NCBI GenBank assembly: GCA_041659465.1
Contig: JBAZYD010000007.1
Span: 5,670-69,669, forward strand
Source of the DNA: Candidatus Micrarchaeia archaeon
Lineage (GTDB): Archaea; Micrarchaeota; Micrarchaeia; Anstonellales; Anstonellaceae
Direction of reading: 5' to 3'
DNA length: 64,000 bases
Shown piece by piece: positions 9,892 through 29,242 of this stretch; positions within the stretch are counted from its first letter, which is position 1; the number at the start of each line of letters is the position of its first letter. Below the pieces are notes generated by a model, which made no database searches, was not told the origin of the DNA, and worked only from the letters and a program-made list of their open reading frames with translations. Position numbers and translations under genes: made by a program.

Positions 9892-9991
9892 CGGGCCCGG
9901 AGGGATTCGAACCCTCAACCGTCTGGTGTCTTCCAGGCAAATCAATATGCCAGTTCGAAGCCAGCTACTCTATCCATTGAGCTACGGGCCC
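9892..9991 (-). tRNA. tRNA-Arg (anticodon TCG) with a 27-nt canonical 37/38 intron (9928-9954)
   Basis: Hand-folded cloverleaf: GGGCCCG/CGGGCCC acceptor, GCTC..GAGT D arm, loop CTTCGAA, T arm GAGGG-TTCGAAT-CCCTC, discriminator G. Bulge-helix-bulge motif: CTTC/GAAG helix flanked by 3-nt bulges GAA and ACA. No encoded CCA. Confidence 0.9.
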
Positions 9992-19005: not shown

Positions 19006-20403
19006 ATGGGAAAGACATACATTGACACGGTAAAGTACCTGGTTTACGCTAATCTTGAGATTGACGGATTGGTGGAAAAGCCCGACGTCGTCGGCGCAAT
19101 CTTCGGGCAGACCGAAGGGCTGCTTGGCGACGAGCTGGACCTCCGCGACCTGCAGAAGAACGGCAGGATTGGCAGGATTGAGGTGGACCTCAACCCGCGC
19201 GGCGGAAGGAGCGTGGGCAAGATAAAGCTGCCCTCCTCGCTTGACATGGTGGAGACCTGCATACTTGCCGCTGCGCTTGAGACGGTGGACCGCGTAGGGC
19301 CATGCGAGGCGAAAATCGGCATCGAGAAGGTGGAGGACACCAGGAATGCCAAGCGCAAGATTCTCGTTGACAGGGCAAAGACGCTGCTCAAGAGCATGCT
19401 CATGCACGAGATACCCGAGAGCAAGGAAATCTCCGAGATGGTGCGCCAGGAAGTCAAGGTCGCGGAAATCTCCGAGTACGGCCCAGAGAAGCTTCCCTGC
19501 GGCCCTGGCATCGAGAAAGTTGATGCCATAGTCATAGTGGAGGGCAGGGCGGACGTGCTCAACCTCCTCAAGAACGACGTGCAGAACGTGGTCGCAGTGG
19601 GAGGCGCAAACGTCACCAATGCGATTGCAAAGCTTGCGCGCGAGAAGGAAGTCACGGTCTTTTTGGACGGCGACCGCGGAGGGGACATCATCCTAAACGA
19701 GCTTGCGCGCGTGGCCGACATCGACTTCGTTGCGCGCGCGCCTGTGGGCAAGGAAGTTGAGGAGCTGTCAAGGAAGGAGCTCATCAAGTGCCTGAGGTCA
19801 AAGGTGCCATACGAAACCAGCCAGCCCATGAGCCAGGTGGGAGAGGACAGGAAGGACAAGTACCCCACATACGGGCGCGAGCGCGACAGGAACCAGCGGG
19901 GGGGCAGGTATGACGACCGCCACCGCCAGAGGCGCGACGACAGGCAGGACGTGATGCCGCCGCTGCCGGAAACGCAGCAGCAGGCAGCGCCGCAGCAATC
20001 GGCGATGGCAACGCAGGCAACCCCGATGGAGCAGCAAAGCATGCCCCAGCAAGCGCCAATGCGCGAGCAGGCGCCTGTTGCGCAGGCCGCGCCAGCAGCT
20101 CCTGTTGCGCAAAAGCCCGCCGAAGTGCCGCCCGCGCTCCTCGCCTCGCTTGACGAGCTTGAGAACACGCTGCGCGCGCGCTTCTACAACGCAGAGCTTG
20201 CAGCGACGAAAGAGATGCCCGTGCGCGAGATGATGAAAAGCCTTGAGGACGAGCGCGACATATACTCCATCGTCTTCGACGGAATCATCACGCAGAGGCT
20301 TGCCGACATGGCCGAGAACAAGAAAATCGGCATACTGGTGGGCATCAAGCTCGGGAACGTGTTCCGCAAGCCCGCAAGCGTGCTGATACACACCAAGACT
20401 TAA
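19006..20403 (+). CDS. dnaG: Archaeal DnaG primase-like protein (TOPRIM, exosome-associated)
   Basis: YLVYANLEIDGLVEKPDVVGAIFGQTEGLLG (archaeal DnaG N-terminus), TOPRIM IVEGRADVLNLL...FLDGDRGGD. Contains a long Q/R/P-rich insert. Confidence 0.9.
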   Translation: MGKTYIDTVKYLVYANLEIDGLVEKPDVVGAIFGQTEGLLGDELDLRDLQKNGRIGRIEVDLNPRGGRSVGKIKLPSSLDMVETCILAAALETVDRVGPCEAKIGIEKVEDTRNAKRKILVDRAKTLLKSMLMHEIPESKEISEMVRQEVKVAEISEYGPEKLPCGPGIEKVDAIVIVEGRADVLNLLKNDVQNVVAVGGANVTNAIAKLAREKEVTVFLDGDRGGDIILNELARVADIDFVARAPVGKEVEELSRKELIKCLRSKVPYETSQPMSQVGEDRKDKYPTYGRERDRNQRGGRYDDRHRQRRDDRQDVMPPLPETQQQAAPQQSAMATQATPMEQQSMPQQAPMREQAPVAQAAPAAPVAQKPAEVPPALLASLDELENTLRARFYNAELAATKEMPVREMMKSLEDERDIYSIVFDGIITQRLADMAENKKIGILVGIKLGNVFRKPASVLIHTKT

Positions 20404-20405
20404 GT

Positions 20406-20450
20406 TGGCGCATTTGCGCCATTCTTTTTCTTTTCTTCTTTTATTTTTTG
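20406..20450 (+). terminator. Hairpin plus T-tract downstream of dnaG
   Basis: ggcgcatttgcgcc hairpin followed by ttctttttcttttcttcttttatttttt. Confidence 0.5.
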
Positions 20451-20471
20451 GGCTAATGTGAATAAGATGAA

Positions 20472-20563
20472 TGGGCCCACGAGGATGGAGCGCGAAGCGC
20501 GACAGATTTTGCGCGCAGCGCAAAACGTGGGCACACGAGCAGCAGCGAGTGGGCCCACGAGGA
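20472..20563. repeat. 14-nt exact direct repeat tgggcccacgagga (20472-20485 and 20550-20563)
   Basis: The second copy is the 3' acceptor strand plus T-stem of tRNA-Val. The first copy lies 64 nt beyond the tRNA 3' end. The spacer contains the perfect hairpin TTTTGCGC-TGC-GCGCAAAA. Confidence 0.8.
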
Positions 20564-20693
20564 ATCGAACCCCGAGTCTTCTGCACGTCAAGCAGACGTC
20601 TTACCATTGTCGAACCCATTTGCACTTTTCCGTTGACGCTTTTGCGAGCGTGCCCATCTGGAGCGAGCAAAAGGGTCATTCGACTATAGGCCC
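20550..20693 (-). tRNA. tRNA-Val (anticodon GAC) with an about 70-72-nt intron in the D-loop (about 20605-20677)
   Basis: Exon 1 is GGGCCTA-TA-GTCG-AAT(G). Exon 2 is (AT)GGTAAGAC-G-TCTGC-TTGACGT-GCAGA-AGACT-CGGGG-TTCGATT-CCTCG-TGGGCCC-A. BHB-like: TCGA/TCGA 4-bp helix flanked by 3-nt bulges ATG and CAA, then an ACCC/GGGT helix. Confidence 0.8.
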
Positions 20694-20751
20694 CTGTAAA
20701 ACTGTTTTCTGCTGCCTAAGCTTTAAGAAGGTTCAGGGAGCAAGGGGGAAT

Positions 20752-21564
20752 ATGGCAGCAACAGCGTCTTGCCCCGCGTACGTGACAGGCTTATTCCTGA
20801 TTGGGGACAAGGACGCGGTTGGCGCTGGTTTCGGGATAGGCAAGCACCTCACCACCATTGTGTCAGAGAAGAAAAGCGGAAGGACTACGATAACGCTGAA
20901 CGGGCAGGAGGGCGCGCTCCCGGTTTCCAAAGCAGTGCTGCGCCGCTACATGGAGAAAGGCTGCAGGCTCGGGCTCCTCGACATACAGCACGCCACAGAG
21001 GTGCCTGTGGGCTTCGGGCTTGGCATGAGCGCGGCTGGCGCGCTTTCGCTTTCCCTTGCCCTAAATGAGCAGCTGGGCGCGGGGCTGCCGCGCGAGGAGT
21101 GCATCAAGATAGCGCATGATGCAGACGTGGAGTGCGGCACGGGCCTGTCAGGGGTGGATGCAGCCGCAATAGGGGGCATGCTTGCGAGGAGGAGCCCGTC
21201 CGAGCAGCCGCTGCAGCTTCCTTTCGAGGAGCGTGCGCTTGAAATCGCATTCTACACGCCCATAAAGACATCAAGCGTGATCAATTCCGCCGAATGGAAA
21301 AAAAGGGTGAACGCCGCCGGGAAAGAGGCGCTTGACCTGCTTTTTGTGAACAGGAACTGGGAAGGGCTGGTGGCATCGTCCCGGCAATTTGCCCAAAAAT
21401 CCGGCCTGGCGGACTGGTGCGCGCACGAGATGGGGTCGAACCCGCGCGCAAGCATGGCAATGCTCGGGCACACCCTTTTCTCCGACATCCCGATGTTCCT
21501 TTCGCGCAAGCCTTTTATGCTCATGAAGGCAAAGACCGCTCAAGACGGGGCAAAATTGCTGTAG
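20752..21564 (+). CDS. Pantoate kinase (archaeal CoA pathway, GHMP family, COG1829)
   Basis: CPAYVTGLF..., GHMP motif PVGFGLGMSAAGALSLSLAL, AHDADVECGTGLSGVDAAAIGG, NPRASMAMLG. Resembles my recollection of T. kodakarensis PoK. Start at MAATAS, after the tRNA. Confidence 0.75.
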   Translation: MAATASCPAYVTGLFLIGDKDAVGAGFGIGKHLTTIVSEKKSGRTTITLNGQEGALPVSKAVLRRYMEKGCRLGLLDIQHATEVPVGFGLGMSAAGALSLSLALNEQLGAGLPREECIKIAHDADVECGTGLSGVDAAAIGGMLARRSPSEQPLQLPFEERALEIAFYTPIKTSSVINSAEWKKRVNAAGKEALDLLFVNRNWEGLVASSRQFAQKSGLADWCAHEMGSNPRASMAMLGHTLFSDIPMFLSRKPFMLMKAKTAQDGAKLL

Positions 21565-28934: not shown

Positions 28935-29242
28935 GGGCAGGCAGAAGGGGAAGCTTTTTAATCAGGCTCAACAGGAACGTTAGCGGGAGCGGCGGAAGGA
29001 CGGCCAACCAAGGCGCGAGACGCGCCGACGGAGGAAGCTCTGCCCACCGCAAGAGTCCTATCCCCTTAAGGGGGAATCGGGAACAGAAACGAAACTTTTC
29101 CGCGCGGATGAGGATGACGAAAGGAGACGCGCGAGAATTGGTGAAACGGCCCGTGTATGGATGCCATGCGCGGTGCAAGGCCTTTGTGCCGCTTAGTCCA
29201 ATGCCGTCTGAAACAGAAGGCAGGCTACTACCTGCCGCTCCC
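28933..29242 (+). ncRNA. rnpB: RNase P RNA (archaeal type A-like)
   Basis: P4 strands GGAGGAAGCUCUGCCC and AACAGAAGGCAGGCUA, GGUGAAACGGCCCGUG element, terminal P1 pairing GAGGGCAGG / CCUGCCGCUC. The overlapping ORFs are Arg/Gly-rich junk. Confidence 0.8.

Follow-up and report, generated by a model that had tools for sequence, protein, structure and literature searches.

A D-loop intron with a predicted relaxed BHB-type splice motif in a tRNA-Val(GAC) gene of a Micrarchaeota archaeon, and signs of intron turnover among its relatives

In ARMAN-2 (Candidatus Micrarchaeum acidiphilum), tRNA genes have been described that are disrupted at non-canonical positions and whose BHB motifs are relaxed (Fujishima et al., 2011, PMC3239211); the epsilon2 splicing endonuclease of this organism (PDB 4FZ2) is known to accept relaxed motifs as substrates (Fujishima et al., 2011, PMC3239211; Hirata et al., 2012, PMC3488258). 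The account of splicing motifs in PMC3239211 presents HBh′ motifs as a substrate class of broad-specificity splicing enzymes. In the Thermoproteales, similar introns have been reported to recur as families across different tRNA genes (Fujishima, 2010, Mol Biol Evol 27:2233, as related in PMC4090602 and PMC3239211), and snapshots of intron insertion events are expressly called for in a review of the field (PMC4033280). The genome under study (G000) resembles ARMAN-2 in belonging to the phylum Micrarchaeota, in possessing a three-unit epsilon2 EndA, in carrying non-canonical relaxed-BHB introns, and in having many of its tRNA genes interrupted; it differs in origin, ARMAN-2 coming from an acid mine and the G000 lineage being represented by a neutral-water MAG. 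An interrupted-tRNA layout is not new for Micrarchaeota, and the added value of the locus described here is a clear snapshot of turnover at one site. With the Thermoproteales, G000 shares near-identical introns in unrelated tRNA genes, at canonical as well as non-canonical positions, which implies recent gain at the DNA level. However, Thermoproteales are Crenarchaeota with an (alpha-beta)2 endonuclease, whereas G000 belongs to the DPANN and has an epsilon2 enzyme. In contrast to the Thermoproteales introns as portrayed in the sources cited above, copies of the G000 family also stand free of any tRNA gene and occur nested in older introns.

The window, which is the whole 64,000-nt stretch of DNA that was analyzed, holds on its minus strand, between two plus-strand genes, what is very probably a real, working tRNA-Val(GAC) gene of this Micrarchaeota (DPANN) archaeon, with a D-loop intron that would be removed by relaxed BHB-type splicing (Table 1). 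All of the tRNA-Val elements quoted in the original prediction were found on the minus strand, where exon 1 reads GGGCCTATAGTCGAA(T) from 20693 and exon 2 reads (T)GGTAAGACG...GGGCCCA, with its 3′ end at 20550. The prediction had also held that the locus contains no continuous cloverleaf and that standard tRNA finders may miss the gene, both of which were borne out. ARAGORN, run over the whole window, found no tRNA and therefore missed the interrupted Val(GAC) gene, while the Rfam tRNA model (RF00005) aligned only to positions 20550-20617 (32.5 bits) with a forced 5′ half, in which the intron-derived GGGTTC was placed in the role of the acceptor 5′ strand. When positions 20400-20850 were searched at a permissive threshold, no Rfam family other than tRNA reached even E = 1, which argues against any known RNA, C/D box type included, within the intron. 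ARAGORN with the -i option, applied to the genome, reported only anticodon-loop introns and mis-called the Val(UAC) paralogue as Cys. The window also contains an archaeal RNase P RNA (28988-29239, plus strand; 93.7 bits) and a further tRNA (9892-9991, minus strand; 56.6 bits), which has an intron of ~28 nt at the canonical position and was called Ser(cga) by ARAGORN -i.

Once joined, the two exons make up 72 nt and were called tRNA-Val(gac) by ARAGORN. The joined sequence possesses U8, G10, A14, G18G19, and A21, together with a 7-bp acceptor containing a single G.U pair (U6.G67), all as originally predicted. The discriminator, A73, lies at 20550, and CCA is not encoded. Since ARAGORN accepted almost any of the trial junctions presented to it, the splice site was fixed by means of orthologues instead. 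Upstream of the gene, the promoter-like box AACCTTCTTAAAGCTT is kept at an equal distance from Val(GAC) orthologues, whether or not they contain an intron, and would correspond to the archaeal TATA/BRE region.

Table 1. Features of the interrupted tRNA-Val(GAC) gene, in window coordinates (a slash marks the predicted cut).
Feature	Position	Strand	Description
tRNA-Val(GAC) gene, both exons and intron	20550..20693	-	
Promoter-like box	20718..20733	-	AACCTTCTTAAAGCTT; A/T core ~28-33 nt upstream of tRNA nt 1
Exon 1, nt 1-15	20679..20693	-	15 nt, GGGCCTATAGTCGAA, 5′ end at 20693; acceptor 5′ strand, U8, A9, D-stem 5′ strand G10-G13, A14, A15
Central helix H, 5′ strand	20681..20684	-	G10 U11 C12 G13; pairs with CGAC at 20612-20609
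5′ bulge	20680-20678	-	A14 A15 / U; cut after A15
Intron	20607..20678	-	72 nt, at tRNA position 15/16; bounds from intronless orthologues and the cut-after-second-bulge-base rule
Inner helix h′, 5′ strand	20673..20677	-	GACCC; pairs with GGGUU at 20617-20613
Inner helix h′, 3′ strand	20613..20617	-	GGGUU
Central helix H, 3′ strand	20609..20612	-	CGAC, intron-encoded
3′ bulge	20608-20606	-	A A / U16
Exon 2	20550..20606	-	57 nt, TGGTAAGACG...TGGGCCCA; Rfam tRNA match and orthologue identity; U16, G18G19, remaining D-arm, anticodon arm, variable loop, T-arm, acceptor 3′ strand, A73
Anticodon	20587..20589	-	GAC, reads GUC and GUU; ARAGORN call on joined exons

Relatives were sampled by a DNA search of 40 related genomes, and the loci obtained were then read. 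In six congeners, the syntenic locus was occupied by an uninterrupted Val(GAC) gene equal to the joined exons at 72 of 72 positions (L004 in G017, L008 in G011, L010 in G007, L011 in G010, L012 in G022, and L022 in G003). The first of these scored 66.9 bits on RF00005 with zero mismatched pairs flagged and was called Val(gac) by ARAGORN. Across nine relatives, the 1.5-kb flank on the 5′ side was 65-82% identical, as opposed to 97-100% for the exons. Judged by alignment of these flanks, the Val(GAC) loci are orthologous. Since the joined exons reproduce the intronless orthologous gene of six relatives in its entirety, their agreement goes far beyond what chance would produce. The claim that the joined exons form a complete tRNA-Val(GAC) is borne out by both the ARAGORN call and this identity. 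The D-loop location of the intron likewise stood, and its length, originally put at about 70 nt, could be refined to exactly 72 nt, with the insertion lying between positions 15 and 16.

Cleavage was placed, on each strand, after the second base of the 3-nt bulge found on the 3′ side of the central 4-bp helix, a rule that was calibrated on the canonical 37/38 intron of the G000 tRNA-Ala(TGC). When GUCG is paired with CGAC and AAU forms the bulge on both strands, this rule yields the D-loop AAUGGUA, which is that of the intronless orthologues. The Val(GAC) intron is thereby bounded by a central helix of 4 bp that separates a 3-nt bulge on one strand from another on the opposite strand, and the splice sites fall inside the bulges. 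An outer helix (h) is absent, as pairing between U8-A9 and G18-G19 is impossible, and this makes the motif a relaxed HBh′ rather than a strict hBHBh′. Its cleavage would rely on a broad enzyme specificity. The original prediction of a BHB at a non-canonical position consequently holds with respect to the type of motif, in its relaxed form, but not with respect to the register, which had been given as TCGA/TCGA with ATG and CAA bulges; the relatives support GUCG/CGAC with AAU/AAU.

Pairing at the junctions of other Val genes was counted directly, the introns at 15/16 not being homologous to one another. Relatives possess 22 intron-bearing Val(GAC/UAC/CAC) genes, all interrupted at 15/16, with introns of 19-128 nt that represent at least eight unrelated sequences. 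Helix H (GUCG/CG(A/G)C) was fully paired in 20 of the 22, and the bulges were AAN/AAU. The inner helix varies in sequence, with its pairing kept in at least eight unrelated introns at this site (variants include GCUCU/AGAGC, GGCCGC/GCGGCU, AGCC/GGCU, ACUUC/GGAGU, and GGCAUUU/AGGUGCC).

Several other kinds of interruption were considered and rejected. A guide-RNA intron of the C/D box type, as found in tRNA-Trp, was set aside on the grounds that the 72 nt contain no RUGAUGA or CUGA box and produced no Rfam match, and a self-splicing group I or group II intron was discarded given a length of only 72 nt and no Rfam intron match. An integration scar or att site does not fit an insert of 72 nt that is bounded by a splice motif and located in the D-loop rather than at the 3′ end. 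Likewise, the exons are collinear and 72 nt apart, in disagreement with a split or permuted tRNA.

The enzymes needed for splicing of this kind are encoded in G000. The three-unit epsilon2 endonuclease EndA (contig C8; 424 aa), with two catalytic-type domains per chain, aligned over its full length with the ARMAN-2 epsilon2 enzyme (PDB 4FZ2; E = 1.8e-125), and the Tyr, His, and Lys motif regions were conserved. Its relatives at 74-95% identity are from Candidatus Micrarchaeota / Micrarchaeia. An RtcB ligase was found on contig C2 (568.9 bits). In the ARMAN-2 reports cited above, the broad specificity is described for substrates interrupted at 37/38 and 59/60, whereas cleavage of a 15/16 HBh′ motif in G000 is predicted. 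A second full-length copy of the epsilon2 EndA gene occurs on a small contig (C36:451-972, minus strand, vs. C8:67971-68492, plus strand), each of the two with an open frame of 425 aa; the double copy may be a true duplication or may reflect strain heterogeneity in the MAG.

The exon identity with the orthologues, the splice motif, the two enzymes, and the intron family with its polymorphism are observed in the sequences; we infer transcription of the gene and the cleavage and ligation of its precursor. The gene would be transcribed as a precursor body of 144 nt, in which the D-stem strand G10-G13 would pair with CGAC near the 3′ end of the intron to leave AAU bulged out on both strands. GACCC and GGGUU, at the two ends of the intron, would form the inner helix and complete the relaxed HBh′ motif. 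The epsilon2 endonuclease would then cleave each bulge on the 3′ side of its second base, between positions 15 and 16, and RtcB would join the exons (...GUCGAA to UGGUAAGAC...) into a 72-nt tRNA, probably circularizing the intron as well. CCA would be added post-transcriptionally.

The original prediction had asked for a check that no other tRNA-Val(GAC) exists in the genome. Pattern searching and blastn over the whole assembly, which is 84.5% complete, found no other tRNA with a GAC anticodon. The Val(CAC) gene on contig C14 is intronless. In long ORFs, GUC and GUU together account for ~37% of valine codons. The Val(GAC) gene is the sole tRNA gene in the assembly able to read GUC/GUU, yet standard finders miss it, and genomes of this lineage will therefore seem to be without a valine tRNA unless the models used to find tRNAs allow for D-loop introns.

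The 72-nt Val(GAC) intron proved to be a copy of a ~70-nt repeat family with the core CCCTTTTGCTCGCTCCAGATGGGCACGCTCGCAAAAGCG..CGGAAAA..GCAAA, as determined by blastn and nhmmer. In G000, at least 13 matches were obtained with nhmmer, distributed among at least 10 tRNA genes and two free-standing sites. Hosts with the element at 37/38 are Ala TGC, Lys TTT, Gln TTG, Leu TAA, Leu CAG, Pro TGG, Glu TTC, and Glu CTC; Val GAC carries it at 15/16, and a further copy resides in a tRNA on contig C4. Several copies lie at contig ends, as would be expected of a repeat. All of the in-tRNA copies that were checked (9/9) have the same orientation as the host gene and begin immediately behind the 5′ bulge. 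At the other end, the final 6-10 bases are particular to each host and provide the 3′ strand of helix H. By blastn, the family occurs in 16 of 22 congeners, and outside the genus no match was found at E < 1e-3 among the 40 related genomes. As in the spread of Thermoproteales introns, the family occupies different tRNA genes and different positions, and its presence varies at orthologous genes.

Of the two free-standing sites, C1:11443-11521 (plus strand) lies ~140 nt upstream of tRNA-Asp(GTC) and is bracketed by the inverted repeat GTGTGTTCAAG ... TTGAACAAATCACAC. The copy is conserved, together with its flanks, at the equivalent place in G010 (L091) and may be the intron of an unrecognised RNA or of a pre-tRNA leader. 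The other, C1:35418-35488 (minus strand), is a family core in an intergenic, A-rich region and is without the 3′ GCAAA..GGGT end.

Membership in a repeat family of which free-standing copies exist (C1:35418-35488 and C1:11443-11521) raises the question of whether the Val(GAC) gene is dead, having been interrupted by a small mobile hairpin repeat, in which case GUY codons would be decoded either by a different valine tRNA or by a second Val(GAC) located in the 15% of the genome that is unassembled. The incompleteness of the MAG (84.5% complete) leaves room for such a second gene, and decayed Val gene fragments do occur in G003, where one of them contains an intron of the 72-nt family (L005). 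We nevertheless consider a dead gene to be very unlikely. The exons show zero substitutions relative to six intronless orthologues despite 18-35% divergence in the flanks, the insert sits exactly at the site of spliceable introns in 22 other Val genes with helix H, both bulges, and the inner helix intact, and the promoter-like box is conserved. In addition, the search of the assembly turned up no other tRNA with a GAC anticodon.

Granting a functional tRNA-Val(GAC) gene, splicing might instead proceed in the originally predicted register, TCGA/TCGA with AUG and CAA bulges, to give a 74-nt tRNA with the 9-nt D-loop AAUAUGGUA when cleavage follows the second base of the bulge. Pairings of TCGA/TCGA and of ACCC/GGGT do exist, and both were seen in the minimum-free-energy fold, which contains a 5-bp GUCGA/UCGAC helix, an AUG bulge, and ACCC/GGGU. 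That fold was only moderately better than those of shuffled sequence (z = -1.9). Because it prefers the 5-bp helix, the register was assigned by comparison with relatives. The 74-nt product would be two bases off the intronless orthologues, and the 3′ partner in most relatives, as in the Val(UAC) paralogue, reads CCGAC, CGGC, or similar, with which TCGA/TCGA is impossible but GUCG/CG(A/G)C is possible. Splicing in the TCGA/TCGA register is therefore, in our judgment, scarcely credible, and the GUCG/CGAC register with cleavage between positions 15 and 16 is preferred.

The Val(GAC) genes of relatives differ widely in their intron content. Twenty such genes were read, half of which (10) are intronless. 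The full 72-nt element was present in G000 only, G014 has a related form of 52 nt, and the remaining eight genes contain unrelated introns of 19-96 nt. At the syntenic locus, the intron measures 72 nt in G000, 41 nt in G020, 96 nt in G021, and 0 nt in G017, G022, G011, and others, and the states found across orthologous Val(GAC) genes are 0, 19, 31, 33, 41-43, 52, 72, and 96 nt. In G020 (L006), whose flank is the most similar among the relatives (82%), the intron is unrelated and 41 nt long, and that of G021 consists of this 41-nt type plus a nested insertion of 55 nt. The G000 intron is identical at 65 of 72 positions (90%) to the one in another isoacceptor, the Val(TAC/UAC) gene of G019.

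Within G000 itself, the Val(UAC) gene on contig C8 is interrupted at the same 15/16 D-loop site by a 41-nt intron of the GCTCTTGCC type. It resembles Val(GAC) in its GUCG/CGAC helix, its AAU bulges, and a nearly equal exon 1, but its intron is unrelated in sequence and shorter (41 vs. 72 nt). The 41-nt type was found in GAC, UAC, and CAC Val genes of different species. Since the intron of Val(UAC) on C8 is of the same type as that of Val(GAC) in G020, intron types appear to have been exchanged between isoacceptors across species.

Taken as a whole, these comparisons of aligned loci point to recent gain, loss, and exchange of introns at Val genes. This D-loop site tolerates introns, and the 72-nt intron has probably arrived there, or replaced another, recently. 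Of the manner in which it moved, we infer that exchange may possibly have taken the form of conversion among Val paralogues, which have exon 1 and the D-arm in common. A broader proposal is that position 15/16 of the Val genes in this genus is a live hot spot of turnover, where gain, loss, swaps among GAC, UAC, and CAC genes, and nested enlargement take place within the divergence of sister species, and that the 72-nt element is a currently mobile, BHB-bounded intron; we regard the case for this as evenly balanced. If true, the genus would offer a second natural system, beyond the Thermoproteales, for dissecting archaeal intron gain. The Val(GAC) locus, with its conserved splice motif and unrelated intron content, is in any event a compact example of intron gain and replacement.

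Variation of a comparable kind was seen at other tRNA genes. In Arg(CCT) and Gly(UCC), the family element is present in G019, G010, or G017, and only short introns occur in G000. The G000 tRNA-Arg(CCT) (C12:31475-31574) has a 25-nt intron, and the same intron at L089, L090, L097, and L099 (G019, G010, and G017) carries a family element of ~55 nt at its 5′ end. As read from these sequences, the Arg(CCT) loci are a filled/empty pair, with a nested insertion into an existing intron.

Two Val remnants were found in tandem in G003 (L005; C52, ~1490-1700), upstream of a working Val(UAC). One is a decayed Val-like copy with an intron of the 72-nt family and the other a 5′ fragment without an intron. 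Finally, the 3′-terminal 14 nt of the tRNA in G000 (TCCTCGTGGGCCCA, minus strand; 20551-20564) recur 64 nt downstream of the gene (20473-20486; plus-strand coordinates). Within the spacer between the tRNA 3′ end and its repeat are a TTTTGCGC...GCGCAAAA hairpin and the sequence GTGCCCACG, complementary to the 3′ strand of the acceptor. Cassettes with a terminal copy of the tRNA 3′ end also occur 3′ of Val(GAC) in L006 and L024, and probably in L004.
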